Shown one piece after another: positions 8,886 to 32,199 of a stretch of DNA of 32,199 nucleotides; within the stretch, counting starts at the first letter, position 1, and each line of letters begins with the position of its first letter. Below the pieces are notes generated by a model, which saw only the letters and a list, made by a program, of their open reading frames with translations, was not told the DNA's origin and searched no databases. This DNA is from a virus. Where the stretch lies: the IMG/VR virus record IMGVR_UViG_3300037506_000159; one strand, written 5' to 3'. A program made the position numbers and the translations under genes.

Positions 8886-9784
8886 AACAACAATTTATTG
8901 AAGATAAAGTTGGGACGATAAGATTAACAGTATATGATTCTAATCGCGCAATAGTGCCTTCGAGCGGGAATATTGTTTTGTATGATCCATCCGGAGGTGT
9001 TATTCAGGCGAGCACGTCCGTTAGTATCAATTCAACGACTGGGGAGATGACGTATTCTCTGACAACGATACACACACAAGACAGAGGGTTAAATTATAAG
9101 GCTGTTTGGGAGTATGTGTTTAATGGTGTTACTTATTACGAGACGCAACTTTTCGATATTGTTCGAAGCATTTTATCTATTCCAATCACGGATGACGATA
9201 TATATTCCGAGCTTGACAGTCTTAGAAAGTCAAATAATCAGGCTACGGGCACGGCTACTTCAGCGACGAGTTCAACGTTAGTTGATACAGCAAAGAGGAA
9301 AGAACCTGATGATTTCTGGAAAGGAGGGACAATAGAGATTATTGCTGGTACTGGAAGTGGGCAAATGCGAGATATCACCGGCAGTGTTCAATCTTCTGGG
9401 ACGATTAGTGTTACTCCTAATTTTACAACAACGCCGGACAGTACAAGTTCATATCGAGTTGTCAAGTCTTACGCGGTTAAGATTGCACAAGCGTTTAATA
9501 AGATTGAGACTATGCTTTATAACAAAGGGAATAGAGATAACTTAATCCTTGAGAGTTCACAGATAGAGCTTCCTCTTTTGTTCTTAACCATTCATCACAT
9601 ATGTCTTGACCTGAGGGATGAAGAAAACGATAAATGGGGTCTTCTGGCTCGTGATTATAATGAAAAATTTAATGATGCTTTTAAGAATATGCGTGTTGAT
9701 TATGATGTTGATGATTCAGGGACGATAAGTGGCGATGAGGAAGAGCAAAAAGATCTAAACAGTTTTAATATATTCAGGTCTTAG
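8882..9784 (+). CDS. hypothetical virion or connector-associated protein
   Basis: 300-aa ORF whose start overlaps the upstream stop. The N-terminal part looks like a beta-rich domain and the C-terminus is acidic. No family recognised. Confidence 0.5.
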   Translation: MKQQFIEDKVGTIRLTVYDSNRAIVPSSGNIVLYDPSGGVIQASTSVSINSTTGEMTYSLTTIHTQDRGLNYKAVWEYVFNGVTYYETQLFDIVRSILSIPITDDDIYSELDSLRKSNNQATGTATSATSSTLVDTAKRKEPDDFWKGGTIEIIAGTGSGQMRDITGSVQSSGTISVTPNFTTTPDSTSSYRVVKSYAVKIAQAFNKIETMLYNKGNRDNLILESSQIELPLLFLTIHHICLDLRDEENDKWGLLARDYNEKFNDAFKNMRVDYDVDDSGTISGDEEEQKDLNSFNIFRS

Positions 9785-24244: not shown

Positions 24245-24461
24245 TAATTAACCCTCGCCAAAATGATGGCTTCAATGTCTTTCATAAGTGCCCCACTATA
24301 ATAACCCTTCATTTATATCAAGCTAATCCCCCCTATCGGCTCAATCTAACATTTTTTCTTTCATATCAACTGTTTTTTATCAATAAATATTGTGTGTTAA
24401 TATATTATTTCGTTACTGTTTTTGTTGACAAATCATGCGTAACCCATTGCGGGACATACGG

Positions 24462-24731
24462 ATGACTAATAATGACTAATAATGACTAATATTTTTACGA
24501 TTAGTCATGTGGAAGTCGTTGCCTTGCAACAATTTGTGGTTTTTATGACTAATATGACTAATTTTTTCTATTATTAGATAAATATATTTAAAAATATATA
24601 AAAAGAAGAAAGAAAAAAAACATATATATAATATAAAAAAAATGCCAATATTGGTCATTTTTTCTGTAACCGGTTGAAAATGTTAATGTTGCACATGACT
24701 AATTTTCAAAATATTAGTCATTATTAGTCAG
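24462..24731. repeat. iteron / palindrome cluster built on ATGACTAAT, flanking an extremely AT-rich stretch (probable origin or operator region)
   Basis: Forward copies at 24462-70, 24472-80, 24482-90, 24545-53, 24554-62 and 24695-703. Inverted copies (ATTAGTCAT) at 24500-08 and 24713-21. Degenerate inverted copies at 24650-58 and 24723-31. Confidence 0.8.
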
Positions 24732-24823
24732 GAAATATATAAGTATAATATAATGAACATGTTACAAAAGAATTGTGGTGAAAATAAGGCATCATACTGT
24801 TGGAAATTTTTGTTATTTTTTGG

Positions 24824-24851
24824 TTGAAAAGTAGTTTTTTTGTTGTATAAT
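24824..24851 (+). promoter_or_regulatory. sigma70-like promoter (TTGAAA-16 nt-TATAAT)
   Basis: TTGAAA at 24824-24829 and TATAAT at 24846-24851, about 100 nt upstream of the HTH gene. Confidence 0.45.
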
Positions 24852-24954
24852 GTTACTATGAAAAATCAAGTTTATAATTTTTATATCGTGTTCTCTTCAA
24901 TAATTAACATTGTTATTTTATGTATTTTATTGTTGATGGAATGGTGAAATAATT

Positions 24955-25170
24955 ATGATTATTAACGGCGTGAATTACATTTGTGTTGATGAAGCATCAT
25001 GTCTTATAGGATATACAAAAGCAACAATAAGGAAAAAGGCAAGGGATGGTTCTATCCAAGCATTCAAGAGAGGCAAAAAATGGTTCTTTATTAAAGAAGA
25101 TTTAATTAATCTCTTGAAAGAATATAAAGTCTTGTCCCCAAAAGAAAGGAGCAGAGAAAATGAAAAATGA
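24955..25170 (+). CDS. excisionase / MerR-type (HTH_17-like) DNA-binding protein
   Basis: 71 aa. YICVDEASCLIGYTKATIRKKARDGSIQAFKRGKKWFFIKEDL fits the excisionase-family HTH pattern (..eaa..lg.s..t......G.i.a.k.G..w.i....l). Confidence 0.55.
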   Translation: MIINGVNYICVDEASCLIGYTKATIRKKARDGSIQAFKRGKKWFFIKEDLINLLKEYKVLSPKERSRENEK

Positions 25171-25306
25171 TACATGGGTTAAATGTCCATCATGCCAAGG
25201 GGACGCGCGAGAACTGGATGGTTTTTTTAGATGTGAATCATGCGGGGATGAATTCCTTGAGGATGAAATCTATGAAGAGGAAAAGACTGAACGGGAATCC
25301 CGCTAA
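25160..25306 (+). CDS. zinc-ribbon protein, probably the N-terminal fragment of a gene split by the foreign segment
   Basis: ATG 25160 lies 8 nt after AGGAG. The 48-aa translation MKNDTWVKCPSCQGDARELDGFFRCESCGDEFLEDEIYEEEKTERESR carries two CxxC pairs. The ORF is below the track cut-off. Confidence 0.5.
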   Translation: MKNDTWVKCPSCQGDARELDGFFRCESCGDEFLEDEIYEEEKTERESR

Positions 25307-26141
25307 TCCCGGCCCCGGTCTGGATTTGTTAATCAGAGTCCCTGATCCATGGGATACTCTGGGAGCCTTGATTGGGGAAATCCAGCAAGGTGTTATGAAC
25401 GGAGAAAAAGCATGGCAGTCCGTACGCGCATGGGATGCGCTTCTAAACGGTGCCCCATTAATGGACAAAGGGATTCCCCAAAAATACGGCCAGGTTGCGG
25501 CTTCTTCAGTCGGCCGTTTTGTGCGTATTTTAAGGCGTGTGGTAAAGAACAGACAGTCCGGGTTATTTGTTGAACAGCGAAATCCCAAGCGGGCCGCAAA
25601 TCTCGGCGAAGAAATCAGAAAGATTCAGGGCGGCCAGACCATGGTTGTTGACATAGCGAAACTCCAAGACGAAGAGCGTTCCTTGGTCTTCGGGCACATT
25701 ATCAAGGAAGTGTATGGGATGTATGCCGAAGCATCCATTGATGAACGCGGGGAATTACCCAAGAAGGTGTTGATTTTCGTCGATGAGCTGAACAAATACG
25801 CCCCGGCCCGCAAAGGCGAAGGCGAATCATCCATACTGGATTATGTGTTGGATATAGCGGCCAGAGGAAGATCATTGGGCGTTGTCTTAATTTCGGCGGA
25901 ACAGTTCATGAGCGAAGTTCATGGTCAGGTGGTCGGCAACTGTTCCACAAAAGTTATCGGTCGCAGCGATTCCTCCGAGTTGGCGGACCCAACATACCGA
26001 TTTATCTCTCAGGATGTTAAGGCAAATTTGACAAGGTTGAATAAGGGTGAGTTGCTGTTAACACATCCTATTTATCGACAGCCGGTCCGTATTGAGTTTC
26101 CGAAACCGGTTTATCAGGCAATTGGTCATAATAAGAAATGA
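25289..26141 (+). pseudogene. 5'-truncated HerA/FtsK-type (DUF87-like) ATPase fragment
   Basis: Walker B VLIFVDELNKYAP and the downstream ARGRSLGVVLISAEQFMSEV...VGNCSTKVIGR are present. No GxxxxGK[ST] occurs anywhere in the ORF. The 25167-25288 part of the track ORF merely overlaps the zinc-ribbon gene. Confidence 0.5.
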
Positions 26142-27373
26142 ACAAATCGTTTTGCATTGAAGATCGATCCGATTGGGAATGGTGGGTGACCCCCCGCTAT
26201 TTACGTGAGAAGCCGGTTCATCGCTGGTGTATTTTCCCGCACAGCTTTACCAGTGAGCTTGTTCATGGCCTTATCGATGAATGGAAATTGAGGGCATCGG
26301 ACTGTATCTTGGATCCCTTCTGCGGAGCAGGGACAACACTCTTGGCCGCTAAAGAAAAGGGAATTCCAGCTATCGGCTACGATCTTTCGCCATTTGCTGT
26401 TTTCGTTTCCCGCGTGAAGATAGGTAACTATAATCCAGATAAGTTGTCAAGAGATTGGGTGAAGTTGAAAAGCAGAATTGATCCTGCCAAATGGAACGGG
26501 GCCTCGCGTCCGTATCCAGAGCTTGTTAGAAAGGCGTTACCCGGGCATTTATTGGGTGCATTTGACAGCGTTAGTAATCAAATCGAAGAAATGGATTTCA
26601 ATGAGACCCATCAACGATTCTTTAAAGTGGCCCTACTCTCAACTCTGCCTAAATTCAGCCGGGCAATAGCAACGGGTGGATGGCTGAAATGGGTTGACCA
26701 GAAAGCAAACACCAGATCTTTACCTGGAGAGTATGAGAAACAAGTACAGTCTATGATTGACGATTTGTCACGAAATGGTTCGGCTGAAAGCAGGGCTGGC
26801 GGGAAAGCTGAAATCAGCGATGCACGCAAATTGCCGGATTCATCGAATACTTTTTCGGCGGTCATCACCTCACCGCCCTACCCCAATAGGCATGATTATA
26901 CCCGGGTCTTTGGAATTGAGCTTATGTTCGGTTTTCTGGACTGGGAGCAAACACGTAATTTAAGATATCAGAGTTTTGAATCGCATCCGGAATCACGTCC
27001 TGAGAGGCCGGATTACAGCGATTATTCTGAGCCAAAAAATTTGAGCAAAACGCTGAAACGTTTAGAGAAATCATCCGTTGATCGTCGTATGCCTGGAATG
27101 TTGAATGGTTATTTTATTGATATCCATTTATCATTGCGGGAAGCAAGGCGGGTTTGCAGGAAAGGCGCAAAGATTGCTTTTGTGGTAGGGAATGCACAAT
27201 ACGGGGGGATCCCTGTTATCGTTGATGAATTGATCGCGGAAATCGGGACAAATTTGGGACTGAAATGTGAAAAAATTCTGGCCATCCGATATCGTGGCAA
27301 TAGTGCTCAACAGATGTTAGAATTTGGCCGTAAGCCGTCACGAGAAAGTATTGTAATTCTGCAAAAGAAATAA
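26138..27373 (+). CDS. DNA methyltransferase (N6-adenine or N4-cytosine, SPPY type)
   Basis: 411 aa. AdoMet motif I ILDPFCGAGTT at residues 57-67 and catalytic motif IV SPPY at residues 245-248 (VITSPPYPNRHDY). The start overlaps the ATPase stop in ATGA. Confidence 0.75.
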   Translation: MNKSFCIEDRSDWEWWVTPRYLREKPVHRWCIFPHSFTSELVHGLIDEWKLRASDCILDPFCGAGTTLLAAKEKGIPAIGYDLSPFAVFVSRVKIGNYNPDKLSRDWVKLKSRIDPAKWNGASRPYPELVRKALPGHLLGAFDSVSNQIEEMDFNETHQRFFKVALLSTLPKFSRAIATGGWLKWVDQKANTRSLPGEYEKQVQSMIDDLSRNGSAESRAGGKAEISDARKLPDSSNTFSAVITSPPYPNRHDYTRVFGIELMFGFLDWEQTRNLRYQSFESHPESRPERPDYSDYSEPKNLSKTLKRLEKSSVDRRMPGMLNGYFIDIHLSLREARRVCRKGAKIAFVVGNAQYGGIPVIVDELIAEIGTNLGLKCEKILAIRYRGNSAQQMLEFGRKPSRESIVILQKK

Positions 27374-27421
27374 GATGATCAAAAAATTTTCGAATCAATC
27401 ACCAGATGTGGTAAGGTGCTC

Positions 27422-27901
27422 ATGAAACCCCTCGCTGGCTCAACTCTTACAATTTTCTTTCTTTTTGGTACAGCAATTTTCCCTTTCACAGTTTTGTCTA
27501 AAGATAGTACCATTGACTTGGTCGATCAACTTTCAGCTTTAGAAGAAAATCAAATTGATATCGGTCGTGTTTGCTTTTTGTTTGCCAAAGAAGCCTATCC
27601 CGATCTTGATGTCGATGAATATTCGAAGAAGCTCGACCAAATGGTCTATGAGATTCGACGATATACAAGGGATACCGGCGACCCCAACGATCCTGACCAC
27701 CGAATCCGTTGTTTAAATAGCTATCTTTATCGGTATAAAAAATTTCACTTTGACAATGATGATCCTTACGCCAGTAAACTTAAGAATAGATACATTAACG
27801 GTCTGATAGACACCAAGAGCGGAAGCTGCTTCACGATGCCGTTGCTTTATCTCGCTTTGGCACAAAGACTAGGAACAAGAGACTTAGGGAATTGTCTATA
27901 A
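27422..27901 (+). pseudogene. 3'-truncated SirB1 / transglutaminase-like (Transglut_core2) family gene with signal peptide
   Basis: AKEAYPDLDVDEYSKKLDQMVYEIRRYT...RIRCLNSYLYRYKKFHF...YINGLIDTKSGSCFTMPLLYLALAQRLG follows the SirB1 N-terminal domain pattern. The ORF then ends 8 codons later, at the composition boundary. Confidence 0.5.
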
Positions 27902-28113
27902 AGAAGCTAAAAAGCAAAAAAGATCTTTTAGAAATATGCTTAATAAAAATAAAGAATAAAGATTTCCAAGACGTAAAGCACTTTTTATTCCATGAGAAAG
28001 GATTGGAAACATTATTGCATCTTTATGATCTTGATAATATTAATATTGATTATATAAGAAGAACTTCTAATGGAAGGATTCTTAATGAATATATTGAACA
28101 TCCAGATTATTAA
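27892..28113 (+). CDS. probable C-terminal remnant of the split zinc-ribbon gene (TTG-initiated in the ORF track)
   Basis: There is no ATG and no SD. The frame is open upstream to 27799 and is in phase with the zinc-ribbon ORF across the AAAGACT repeat. Confidence 0.35.
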   Translation: MSIKKLKSKKDLLEICLIKIKNKDFQDVKHFLFHEKGLETLLHLYDLDNINIDYIRRTSNGRILNEYIEHPDY

Positions 28114-28959: not shown

Positions 28960-29664
28960 ATGAGCAATAGCAAGATCTTATCAATATGCCCGACAAGAGG
29001 GAGGATTCCGCGGTTGAAGAAAATGATTGATTCTTTCTTGATTACAAGCTCGGGCGACGCAGATATGATTCTTGGTATTGATTATGATGATTATGAGAAT
29101 AATTATTCAGAGTATCAGAAAATATTATCTATATCTTCAAGAATAAATCACTATATCTCCAAAGGGCGTAAAGGCATAACTTGTATCTACAATGATATAT
29201 TTTCCGAGTCCCCATCTTATTTTGCGTATAATCTGATTAATGATGATTTTATATTTATGACAGATAGTTGGGATTCGAGAGTTCTTAGGGCGTTTAACAA
29301 TGAAATCGATATTGTTTACTGCAATGATCTTATGAATGGTGAGAATTTATGCGTATCGCCATTTATAACTAATAGGTTGGCAAAAGCTGTTGGTTGGTTG
29401 CAATATCCAGGGGTCTATCATTTGTTCGGTGATGTTATTTGGCGAGACATCGGGCAGGCCTTGAGAAACATGAAATATCTGAATAATATTTATATTGAGC
29501 ATCAACATTTCTTGAAGATGAAGCCTTTGTTTGATGATACGTATGCTTGGACAAATTCTTTAGATATGTACAAGATCGATCAAGAAGCTTATTCTCAATG
29601 GCGTAATTTGTACAAAGATCAAGTTATTAATAGGATAAGAGAGAAGGTATATTGTGTCAGGTAA
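28960..29664 (+). CDS. GT-A-like glycosyltransferase (divergent)
   Basis: The N-terminal LSICPTRGRIPRLKKMIDSFLITS parallels the GT2 start (vsviiPTyNR...l...i.S.l.q.). An acidic NDDFIFMTDSWD motif is present. Confidence 0.4.
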   Translation: MSNSKILSICPTRGRIPRLKKMIDSFLITSSGDADMILGIDYDDYENNYSEYQKILSISSRINHYISKGRKGITCIYNDIFSESPSYFAYNLINDDFIFMTDSWDSRVLRAFNNEIDIVYCNDLMNGENLCVSPFITNRLAKAVGWLQYPGVYHLFGDVIWRDIGQALRNMKYLNNIYIEHQHFLKMKPLFDDTYAWTNSLDMYKIDQEAYSQWRNLYKDQVINRIREKVYCVR

Positions 29665-30505
29665 TGTTGATGTCAGCCTGTTTGCTTCAAGCATTAGACC
29701 TGTTCTGTATTCATCTTTTCTAAAGAATTTATTTAATGAAAGAATTTGTATTGAAGTTGTTTTCTGTGGATATATTCCGATAGAGGAGATTTGCCATTTT
29801 TTGTATGTTTCTCCAGAGATTTCTTGTGATATAGATAATGATATAAACAATGCTAAGTTTCAGCTTTGTAATGGAAAAATAAAATTAATTTATATAGAGA
29901 CAAAAAAAGAGATAAAGCCTGCACAATGTTATGAGATTGCACGTAGGGCATGTTCTGGCAGGTATGTTATATGGACAGCGGATGACTGTGAATTTAATGG
30001 ATGCATACTAACAAAAGCCGTTTCTTTTTATCAAGGGGTTAGCGATAAGGTTGTTTTATCTCTTCAGACAAAAGAATCCGGTTATGGATCAAGGCATTTG
30101 GCTTATCAAGATATGAGAGGGCATAGGTTGTTCCCGACAGATTTAAGTAGTCCGATTATGGCGCCTATTGGTATGATAAACAGGGATTATCTGAATATTT
30201 TGGGTGGATTAGATAGAAGATATACATGTGGGCAATATGAGAATGATATTGTTATGCGCGTTTTGTCAGACGGTGGCAGAGTAGAGATATTTGGTGATCA
30301 TGATTCTAATGTTGAAATAGATCATCTTGGGAAATCTTTTTTTTGCAAAGAGAGTTCTAATGAGCGAGGTTTTCTTAATAGAAGTTTTGCCCTTGGGTAT
30401 CAGGAAGACAGAAGGGTTTTAGAGGGTTCGTGGAAGAAGTATAATAAAAGATCGGATGATTTTATTGGATATCCTGAGAAAGGGCTATTAACTCATTCGT
30501 ACTGA
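29654..30505 (+). CDS. GT-A-like glycosyltransferase (divergent)
   Basis: GTG start overlapping the upstream gene by 11 nt. VDVSLFASSIRPVLYSSFLKNL is followed by YVIWTADDCEF (DxD-like). Confidence 0.35.
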   Translation: MSGNVDVSLFASSIRPVLYSSFLKNLFNERICIEVVFCGYIPIEEICHFLYVSPEISCDIDNDINNAKFQLCNGKIKLIYIETKKEIKPAQCYEIARRACSGRYVIWTADDCEFNGCILTKAVSFYQGVSDKVVLSLQTKESGYGSRHLAYQDMRGHRLFPTDLSSPIMAPIGMINRDYLNILGGLDRRYTCGQYENDIVMRVLSDGGRVEIFGDHDSNVEIDHLGKSFFCKESSNERGFLNRSFALGYQEDRRVLEGSWKKYNKRSDDFIGYPEKGLLTHSY

Positions 30506-30540
30506 ATTAATATTATTTGTTTAGTTTAACCTATTAATTA

Positions 30541-30558
30541 ATATATATATATATATAT
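30541..30558. repeat. (AT)9 dinucleotide microsatellite immediately upstream of terS
   Basis: ATATATATATATATATAT read directly, ending 1 nt before ATG 30560. Confidence 0.9.
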
Positions 30559-30559
30559 C

Positions 30560-30991
30560 ATGGAAGCCATGTCGTTGGGGAAGAATCGTGTTGGTCGGCC
30601 GGCAAGATTCACTAGGGAATATGCTGTTGAGATTGCTAAAAAGCTAGAGAAATGGATTGAGTCGCCGGAGAATTTTTGGTTGGGAAGTTTTGCCGTAGAG
30701 AATAAGATGCACCGGCAACAATTGTCCAAGTTTGTTAATGACTTTCCAGATGAGTTAAAAGACGCGTATTTATTAGCAAAACAGCATCAAGAGAATAAGC
30801 TTTTTATTGGTGCGGTTACAAACAAGATGAACTCATATATGTGCTATGCGGCGTTGAAGAATGTTGCTGGATGGCGTGATTCTGAATATATTGTTGATGA
30901 AGAACTTCCTGAGAAAAGCATTGATATTGGTTTCCCCAGTGGTTCGTCTATAGATATTAAGAAGATTAAAGACCTTATCGTTAATGAATAG
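30560..30991 (+). CDS. terS: terminase small subunit
   Basis: 143 aa. The N-terminal GKNRVGRPARFTREYAVEIAKKL is a terS-type HTH. The gene lies immediately upstream of terL and overlaps it. Confidence 0.65.
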   Translation: MEAMSLGKNRVGRPARFTREYAVEIAKKLEKWIESPENFWLGSFAVENKMHRQQLSKFVNDFPDELKDAYLLAKQHQENKLFIGAVTNKMNSYMCYAALKNVAGWRDSEYIVDEELPEKSIDIGFPSGSSIDIKKIKDLIVNE

Positions 30992-32199
30992 TTCATTAAT
31001 AATAAAAGGATATGCTCCGCATGTCGGGCAGGTTGCTTTTCATTATGCGATGGAGGTATATAATTATGTTCTTCTTTTGGCTGGGATTCGTGGAGGAAAG
31101 ACTTATTGTGGAGCAAGGCAAGCTTTAAAAGATGCTTGGAACTCTTCAGCTAAAGGCGCGTATTTGATTGTTGCGCCAACATATAACATGTTGGACAAGA
31201 CAACTTGGCCGGAGTTTATTGAAGCTTCTCGGGATTATATATTCAAAGAAAATAAGGTTGATAAGATTATCAAGCTAAAAAATGGTAATATTGTTTATGG
31301 ATATTCCGCCGAGAATCCAGATCGGATTAGAAATACAACAGCAACGGGATTTTGGGGGGACGAGGCTAGAGAATGGAAAGATTTTAAAGGAATGTGGAGA
31401 ATATTATTAGGACGTGCTCTTTCTACTGGAGGGAAGGGATTTATTACAACAACTCCCAATGGGCTTGGCGGGATATATGATGTCTTTTTCAAGGAAAAAA
31501 GACAAGATTTTGGTGTTGTTCGGTTTGATACTTATAAGAATGAGTATATCCTTAAGGAGAGAATAGACGATTTATATAATTATTATGATGAACAGTTTGC
31601 CAGACAAGAGATAGGGGCCGAATTTATAAGCTTTAAGGGAGGCGTTTATCATGCGTTCTGCAAAAAGAATGTTGTTGATCATATTTATGAAGATATTTCT
31701 CGTCCTTTAATTCTTTGTTGTGATTTTAACGTTAACCCTATGGCGTGGGTTATTTGCCAGAGGGAAAAGGGACAAGACGGAAGAGATGTTATTCATGTAA
31801 TTGATGAGATTTTTTTGAATAATTCAAATACTTATGAAGCGTGCGTTGAGGTTAAATCAAGGTATCAGACTGTTGGGAGGACGGTATATCTTTATGGTGA
31901 TGCTACTGGTAGGGCTAGGCACGCGGCATCAAATTTGTCTAATTGGGCTATTGTAAAGCAGGAACTGTCTGGAAGTTATTTAGTTGATAGGGTGCCAATC
32001 AATAACCCAAGTGAAATTGATCGGGTTAATTGTTTGAATACTATGTTGTGTAACAGTGCTGGTGTCAGAAGGATTTTTGTATCATCAAAATGCAAAAATC
32101 TTATAAATGATTTAGAAAGAGTTCAGTACAGGCATGGGACGTGTTATATTGATAAAAGTTTTGATAAAATGTTGACTCATTTGACAGATGCTTTAGGAT
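30984..32199 (+). CDS. terL: terminase large subunit, N-terminal 405 codons (the ORF runs off the window end and continues at 128..186)
   Basis: The frame is open from ATG 30984 to the window end. Walker A AGIRGGKT and Walker B FWGDEA are present, with nuclease motifs CCDFNVNP and LYGDATG. Total length with the wrap-around is 424 aa. Confidence 0.9.
   Translation, partial: MNSSLIIKGYAPHVGQVAFHYAMEVYNYVLLLAGIRGGKTYCGARQALKDAWNSSAKGAYLIVAPTYNMLDKTTWPEFIEASRDYIFKENKVDKIIKLKNGNIVYGYSAENPDRIRNTTATGFWGDEAREWKDFKGMWRILLGRALSTGGKGFITTTPNGLGGIYDVFFKEKRQDFGVVRFDTYKNEYILKERIDDLYNYYDEQFARQEIGAEFISFKGGVYHAFCKKNVVDHIYEDISRPLILCCDFNVNPMAWVICQREKGQDGRDVIHVIDEIFLNNSNTYEACVEVKSRYQTVGRTVYLYGDATGRARHAASNLSNWAIVKQELSGSYLVDRVPINNPSEIDRVNCLNTMLCNSAGVRRIFVSSKCKNLINDLERVQYRHGTCYIDKSFDKMLTHLTDALG
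32073..32199. repeat. terminal overlap, identical to 1..127
   Basis: Direct comparison, see feature 1..127. Confidence 0.95.

Follow-up and report, generated by a model that had tools for sequence, protein, structure and literature searches.

A putative capture of a bacterial DNA methyltransferase gene, with pieces of its two neighbours, by an uncultured tailed phage

How does an intact DNA methyltransferase gene, flanked by pieces of two other bacterial genes, come to lie between two short open reading frames (ORFs) of a phage? The question is raised by the IMG/VR virus record IMGVR_UViG_3300037506_000159, a stretch of 32,199 nucleotides (nt) that was analysed over its full length and is referred to here as the window. 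A preliminary description, made from the letters of the DNA and a list of its ORFs, proposed that a 2.6-kb piece of bacterial chromosome had been captured through a microhomology and had split a phage zinc-ribbon gene. We consider it very probable that a piece of host DNA was captured by illegitimate recombination, with the methyltransferase as the likely benefit to the phage.

In the proposed mechanism, a 2,582-nt piece of host DNA would have been joined, during infection, into a small and non-essential phage gene. The captured piece would begin midway through an ATPase gene of the HerA family, span the whole adjacent methyltransferase gene, and end after the first half of the following gene, which is SirB1/transglutaminase-like. 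The right joint would have formed through a chance identity of 7-11 nt (AAAGACT[AGGA]) between the SirB1-like coding sequence of the donor and the phage target, and the left joint with an identity of no more than ∼1 nt. Most likely, the phage would benefit by having its own DNA methylated by an enzyme with which the host marks itself, allowing escape from a restriction-like system, and the two gene stumps would be passengers. The features involved are as follows (aa, amino acids).

25160..25288, + strand: 5' part of the putatively disrupted phage zinc-ribbon gene, 43 codons (AGGAG, ATG, CPSC, CESC)
25167..26141, + strand: mechanical 324-aa chimeric ORF, in which the ATPase frame extends 42 open codons upstream into the phage gene
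25282..25288, no strand: left AAAGACT, phage sequence directly before the first donor-homologous base
25289..27870, + strand (same direction as the phage genes): foreign bacterial segment, 2,582 nt, recognized by its base composition and by its identity to bacterial loci L003 and L050
25289..26141, + strand: 3' stump of an ATPase gene of the HerA family, corresponding to residues ∼298-580 of a homologue of 580 aa
26138..27373, + strand: intact DNA methyltransferase, 411 aa (motif I DPFCGAGTT, motif IV TSPPY)
27416..27874, + strand: 5' stump of a gene for a SirB1/transglutaminase-like protein (Transglut_core2) whose N-terminus is hydrophobic
27864..27870, no strand: right AAAGACT, within Q-R-L codons of the donor
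27871..28113, + strand: 3' part of the putatively disrupted phage gene, 80 codons and a stop (called as a 73-aa TTG-start ORF, 27892-28113)

The foreign segment and its joints

The guanine-plus-cytosine (GC) content is 0.457 in 25289-27870 and 0.367 in the rest of the window. Two copies of AAAGACT, a heptamer that occurs 7 times in the whole window, lie exactly where the preliminary description had placed them, and base composition had been said to switch abruptly just after each. The switch is softer at the right copy than at the left, since GC content is 0.47 over 25289-27373 and only 0.40 over the last ∼500 nt, which hold the SirB1-like part (27374-27870).

A scan for the methyltransferase over one genome per species gave 13 loci, the best of which lies in a metagenome-assembled genome (MAG) of the Planctomycetales, locus L003. 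This locus aligns without gaps to window positions 25288-27357 at 93.3% nt identity, starting exactly at the left junction, and the homology fades between 27357 and ∼27397. The contigs carrying the next-best ATPase matches (L051 and L052) reach only ∼70% nt identity. The L003 ATPase is 580 aa long at full length, and its C-terminus is 99.6% identical in amino acid sequence to the stump in the phage. It matches the HerA subunit of the Deinococcus HerA-NurA complex (PDB 7f6d) at 1.5e-37, including the Walker A motif (GISGxATKTS; GISGLATKTS in L003, near residue 190), which falls within the 297 residues missing from the phage. The stump keeps Walker B (VLIFVDELNKY), lacks Walker A and the N-terminal domains, and is matched by NCBIfam HerA models only at model positions ∼400-500. 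HerA/FtsK ATPases have Walker A and Walker B in one polypeptide, and the stump is thus a gene fragment, as the preliminary description had concluded from the missing P-loop and N-terminus.

At the other edge, the SirB1-like ORF covers positions 2-82 of the 155 in Pfam Transglut_core2. Its homology ends after LALAQRLG, where relatives go on with YPVYPV and ∼110-150 more residues; here the frame runs 8 codons into phage DNA (TRDLGNCL) before a stop at 27899-27901. The earlier observation of a cut at this point therefore holds, and since the complete core and the C-terminal TPR-like part are lacking, this ORF is also a gene fragment. The preliminary description had considered that both edge genes might be of natural length, but full-length homologues of 580 aa (ATPase) and 264 aa (SirB1-like) were found, neither of the length seen here. 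The best SirB1-like relative (L016) has 73% aa identity, a GC content of 0.38, and an unrelated gene upstream.

Homology to bacterial DNA ends abruptly, and inside a gene, on both sides. At the left, identity to L003 begins at 25288, and the 12 nt preceding it match at 3 positions, a random level, leaving at most ∼1 nt of identity between the partners. At the right, DNA homology to L016 (81% nt identity) stops at 27873, where L016 reads GCTCAGAGACTTGGTTATCC. The right joint can be placed only within 27864-27874, with a possible phage-donor overlap of AAAGACTAGG(A). In the position of the right AAAGACT, L016 reads CAGAGACTTGG, encoding AQRLG; its GAGACTTGG matches AAAGACT at 5 of 7 positions, L016 being a relative that stands in for the true donor. 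Because QRLG is conserved there in L016, the right AAAGACT is most probably the donor's own Q-R-L coding sequence and not a copy of the target. For two boundaries fixed independently by homology, a common heptamer is expected in 0.1% of randomly drawn pairs by a strict count and in 0.9% by a loose one. The joints fit a microhomology-mediated recombination on the right with an almost homology-free joint on the left, rather than a target-site duplication. That the homology limits of L003 and L016 fall at the predicted junctions supports the proposal of an illegitimate, microhomology-associated capture of bacterial DNA.

A terminator-like hairpin (AGCGGGATTCCCGTT, with a T-rich tail) can be drawn on the minus strand at 25290-25304, exactly at the left junction. 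Being part donor and part phage sequence, it is probably fortuitous.

The source of the segment is indicated by gene order, as the preliminary description had expected of the truncated genes: bacterial loci carry a full-length ATPase directly upstream of the same methyltransferase. More than 30 loci of bacterial or metagenomic origin, from many phyla, show this order, and in them the two genes are the last of a four-gene operon encoding a Type IIG restriction/methylase-like protein (∼1,100 aa; PADLOC E = 0), a NurA-like protein (∼375 aa), HerA (∼580 aa) and the methyltransferase (411 aa). The operon is seen at L003 1718-9401, and also at L004, L019-L022 and others. Since bacteria have the whole, conserved operon and the phage only a stump, the direction of transfer was from bacterium to phage. 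Taken at the level of sequence, these comparisons demonstrate the foreign origin of the segment, the direction of transfer, both breakpoints, both truncations and the intactness of the methyltransferase, as well as the recent date discussed below.

Alternative readings of the locus

Several observations weigh against the capture account or parts of it, and they are considered here together with the alternatives that they favour. The first concerns the phage gene. The 48-aa ORF (25160-25306) has AGGAG 7 nt 5' of its ATG, contains CPSC and CESC, and ends with EEEKTERESR at a stop codon (25304-25306) within the foreign DNA. The 73-aa ORF has TTG as its start codon; in-frame ATG and GTG codons are absent, as is a Shine-Dalgarno sequence, and the frame is open upstream to 27799 (TAA at 27796-27798). 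AAG-ACT is read in frame as two codons in both repeat copies, and joining 25288 to 27871, by removal of 25289-27870, gives an uninterrupted ORF of 123 codons (43 + 80). The preliminary description had both ORFs right, and its fused ORF holds arithmetically. The empty site is predicted to read GAGGAAAAGACTAGGAACAAG. The rebuilt gene overlaps the upstream helix-turn-helix gene and leaves 30 nt to the following ATG, consistent with tight packing. Frame continuity, the missing start signals, the gene packing and the repeat together suggest that the 48-aa and 73-aa ORFs were probably once a single 123-aa gene.

It is unlikely, though with a real chance of being correct, that the insertion is genuine and the two ORFs were never one gene, the segment having landed near a gene boundary, possibly with loss of phage bases, and the frame agreeing by chance. 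Frame continuity taken alone has a chance probability of ∼1 in 4 (a rough estimate), and about half of the phage genes lack a Shine-Dalgarno sequence. The Pfam zinc-ribbon matches of the 48-aa ORF are weak and under the gathering cut-offs. A weak match to phrog_8315, a profile of only 62 positions, gives a hint of short proteins that stand alone. No homologue of either half, and no fused relative, was found. Among 5.8 billion proteins, the only match of the rebuilt 123-aa protein is its own 73-aa half; no relative was found in viral contigs or, by tblastn, in GenBank phages. The 80-aa C-terminal part, compared with 1.84 billion representatives (full HMMER), matches only itself and low-complexity repeat proteins. 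An uninterrupted gene of ∼123 aa in related phages, which the preliminary description had hoped for, is absent from every collection searched. A 26-nt word just right of the junction has no match in viral and metagenome contigs, in collections that also lack the window itself. The two-gene interpretation has nevertheless to explain a 73-aa ORF without any in-frame ATG or GTG in a genome where 36 of the 39 called starts are ATG. In addition, the 7-nt repeat at both homology-defined boundaries argues against loss of phage bases, and the rebuilt gene suits the tight packing of its neighbours.

The second point concerns the contiguity of the donor DNA. It is improbable that the capture was real and the segment composite (the truncated ATPase with the methyltransferase, and the truncated SirB1-like gene, having been joined separately) or acquired second-hand via a phage or mobile element. 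Such an origin would account for the GC step within the segment and for the fading of L003 homology just there. Moreover, none of the ∼45 bacterial or metagenomic methyltransferase loci fetched has a SirB1-like gene nearby, and the gene upstream in L016 is a different one. The colinear locus anticipated by the preliminary description was recovered in part: the ATPase-methyltransferase pair is common, no bacterial contig with full-length HerA, methyltransferase and SirB1-like genes together was found, and the methyltransferase-SirB1 adjacency is seen only in a 922-nt contig from another sample (L050; JGI sample 3300037479). L050 is 100% identical to window positions 26672-27444 over 773 nt, covering the 3' part of the methyltransferase gene, the spacer and the first 29 nt of the SirB1-like gene. 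Its 1-150 region diverges by 17% over the 133 nt corresponding to window positions 26539-26671, and therefore represents a different genetic background, with another upstream methyltransferase allele. The adjacency is thus seen independently, and the complete identity indicates a recent capture. L050 could, however, be a recombinant phage variant rather than the donor. The DNA that follows the methyltransferase differs among L003, L004 and L022, a variation to be expected where a defence island ends, and the GC step is therefore compatible with one contiguous donor locus. These comparisons favour a single donor locus in which a defence island ends just after the methyltransferase.

Divergence from L003 gives the relative age of the event. 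In the ATPase stump, 40 of the differences are synonymous and 1 is non-synonymous (synonymous divergence, dS, 0.236); for the methyltransferase, dS is 0.254. Because the two values are equal, the stump and the methyltransferase have one common history. A useless stump with next to no non-synonymous change implies that the divergence arose almost entirely in bacteria, and the capture is therefore recent. Recent capture also explains why the stump is undecayed; since it is as little decayed as the methyltransferase, the intactness of the latter is not evidence of selection.

A donor that was also the host of the phage, an infected cell with a HerA-methyltransferase island beside a SirB1-like gene, is only a lead. 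The GC content of the phage is well below that of L003 (0.47-0.49) and nearer to that of the SirB1-like part and of L016. Defence islands are mobile between lineages, and the naming of a host from them is weak. The lead nevertheless concerns a phage lineage without relatives in the phage collections searched. For the island, the closest sequenced relatives are in a Planctomycetales MAG and in Omnitrophota MAGs.

The third alternative, that a mobile element inserted itself and that AAAGACT is its 7-bp target-site duplication, is very improbable. A 7-bp direct repeat does flank the segment, as a target-site duplication would. Set against this, no inverted repeats bracket the segment, and neither the ORF list nor domain profiles reveal a transposase or integrase gene or domain within it. 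Both ends cut ordinary genes in mid-domain, and the right repeat is most probably donor-derived, lying in the Q-R-L coding sequence conserved in L016. In bacteria, the ATPase-methyltransferase pair belongs to a fixed operon, and its limits there are not those of the segment. The origin of the right repeat and the lack of bracketing inverted repeats led us to reject the transposon reading. A tRNA was also sought, and none was found.

The last alternative is an assembly artefact. Positions 1-127 of the window repeat exactly as 32073-32199, indicating a closed circle of ∼32,072 bp and thus a complete phage genome. A Logan contig (SRR12687782; 32,102 nt) is 100% identical to the window and contains both junctions, and a contig of JGI 3300043180 (32,090 nt) also contains both junctions and encodes exactly the same methyltransferase protein. 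The three circles close with overlaps of different lengths (127 nt in the window, ∼30 and ∼27 nt in the other two), showing that they come from different assembly runs. The JGI contig has a 9-bp in-frame indel (GTTATGCGC; window 30251-30259, in ORF 29654-30505); the 14.2 kb of this contig that were fetched (L002) otherwise agree with the window throughout. It is hardly credible that bacterial and phage reads were mis-joined and that no real molecule carries the segment, despite the short-read metagenomic origin of the contig, its abrupt change in composition and the fact that the question is judged from assemblies rather than from reads: both junctions recur in three assemblies with differing overlaps and a 9-bp variant elsewhere, a de Bruijn mis-join needs a common k-mer of tens of bases where the joints offer 7-11 nt, and two mis-joins would be needed at the same phage base, in the same orientation and with the frame kept. 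On these three assemblies, an artefact is very unlikely.

The methyltransferase and its source operon

Only the middle gene of the segment is intact, as proposed in the preliminary description. The methyltransferase matches Pfam N6_N4_Mtase and PADLOC MTase_II (1e-60), contains the AdoMet-binding motif FxGxG and the catalytic motif [SDN]PP[YF], and retains all columns invariant among 10 aligned family members. Its start codon overlaps the ATPase stop codon (ATGA) and is not preceded by a Shine-Dalgarno sequence. The SPPY motif, the JGI product name (cytosine-N4-specific) and weak PDB matches suggest an N4-cytosine enzyme. It is an orphan in the phage: no cognate nuclease is carried, and the Type IIG-like and NurA-like genes of the donor are absent from the segment.

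The methyltransferase has 91.5% aa identity to its L003 counterpart and 77% to those of L004 and L022. In the L003 comparison, 52 of the 138 nucleotide differences fall within 300 nt (26638-26937; L003 8501-8800), where the amino acid changes also cluster. This region looks like a target-recognition domain. The mosaic pattern suggests recombination among methyltransferase alleles, possibly with different target specificities. In L003, a 1-nt difference near the normal stop (9190-9401) extends the ORF to 466 aa; the 411-aa form is common to the phage, L004 and L022, and the L003 C-terminus is frameshifted or extended.

A passage in PMC4190342, citing Hill et al. 1991, describes lactococcal phages that take up host or plasmid methylases and gain protection. 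Because phage orphan methylases of this kind are established, the gene is intact and it is co-oriented with phage transcription, the methyltransferase is the best candidate for the benefit of the capture. By analogy with these cases it would be expressed and protective. It may also, as the preliminary description had proposed, be under selection.

The 324-aa chimeric ORF offers a further possibility. Its ATG lies 7 nt after that of the zinc-ribbon ORF, behind the ribosome-binding site of the latter, and it is called as a gene in both fetched assemblies; frame openness of this kind occurs in ∼7% of the +1-frame windows of this phage. We regard it as highly doubtful that the HerA stump, in the form of this chimeric protein, poisons the host HerA-NurA complex as a dominant-negative subunit, delivers ribosomes to the methyltransferase start, or does both. 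If true, the phage would have gained a modification enzyme and a decoy from one defence operon in a single event.

The four-gene donor operon may be an uncharacterised restriction-like system. The gene product preceding HerA (372 aa) weakly resembles the NurA of 7f6d (E = 0.37), and the operon occurs in defence islands, where neighbouring genes include GmrSD-like, toxin-antitoxin and Type I restriction-modification genes. PADLOC v2 returns only component-level matches, including weak ones to mad2, mad8 and PglX, and membership of a named defence system could not be established from them. HerA is also mentioned in a BREX-related paper, which concerns a different system. The capture marks the operon as a probable methylation-dependent anti-phage system, and since the phage has already singled out the methylase, the protective methylase of the operon is directly testable.

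The phage genome and comparison with known systems

The window is the genome of an uncultured siphovirus-like tailed phage. Its genes, all on the + strand, include those for portal, tape-measure, Dit, minor tail and terminase proteins, a Prim-Pol/D5 primase and an SNF2 helicase. No close relative of the window proteins tested was found in IMG/VR or among GenBank phages. The primase and terminase, compared with viral contigs, revealed no related phage, and the left flank DNA and the DNA of the segment gave nothing in GenBank phages.

Two other non-coding features of the genome were seen. On the 3' side of the primase gene, 710 nt (24245-24954) are non-coding and AT-rich (GC 0.20-0.26), and contain 8 of the 9 exact copies of ATGACTAAT in the window, in both orientations, where 0.57 would be expected by chance. 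Three tandem 10-nt units lie at 24462-24491, imperfect inverted arms of 42 nt at 24473-24514 and 24689-24730, and a near-consensus promoter-like site (TTGAAA-16-TATAAT) at 24824-24851, after the repeat copies. This region resembles a replication origin of the iteron type, or else an array of operators. Secondly, an alternating AT run (atatatatatatatatat; 30535-30559) lies directly 5' of the ATG of ORF 30560-30991, the gene immediately upstream of the terminase gene.

The process, capture of a modification gene from host to phage by illegitimate recombination, is already well known, and the present instance is a very clean one. It provides a textbook-quality natural case of gene pickup by a phage, with a sequence that reveals both joints, the donor operon and how old the event is, and it illustrates current understanding rather than changing it. 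The closest comparison is with phage orphan methylases, such as that of phi50, which carries the LlaI methylase domain from pTR2030, and those of 936-type phages (PMC4190342). As in the present case, a tailed phage of lytic type carries a methylase of defence-system origin without its nuclease, and the expected outcome is self-protection from host restriction. Unlike in those cases, both joints here can be read at nucleotide level, only stumps remain of the two neighbouring genes, and the source is a four-gene operon rather than a classical two-gene Type II system.

Morons and mosaic joints (the Hendrix/Hatfull model; a passage of PMC2327257 gives a related discussion) are alike in foreign composition, co-orientation with the phage genes and identity of only a few bases at the joints. 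Classical morons are complete transcription units located between genes, whereas the ends of the present segment do not match those of any unit, three genes having been cut and a phage ORF interrupted. Aberrant excision in lambda Spi- and lambda bio phages is likewise a joining of host and phage DNA at microhomologies. Passages in PMC11372144 and PMC3375238 describe the Spi- assay for illegitimate recombination. In lambda, the events take place at prophage edges and phage DNA is replaced; in the present case, neither an integrase nor an att site is in view and there is no apparent loss of phage DNA.

The donor operon can also be compared with NurA-HerA modules (PDB 7f6d), since its ATPase is a HerA homologue and the preceding gene is weakly NurA-like. 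Defence modules based on HerA, including SIR2-HerA and DUF4297-HerA, are described in passages of PMC11472057 and PMC11291478. Known HerA modules differ from the donor operon, which also encodes a Type IIG-like enzyme and a second methylase, and the phage has kept from it only a C-terminal HerA stump that looks non-functional, together with the methyltransferase.

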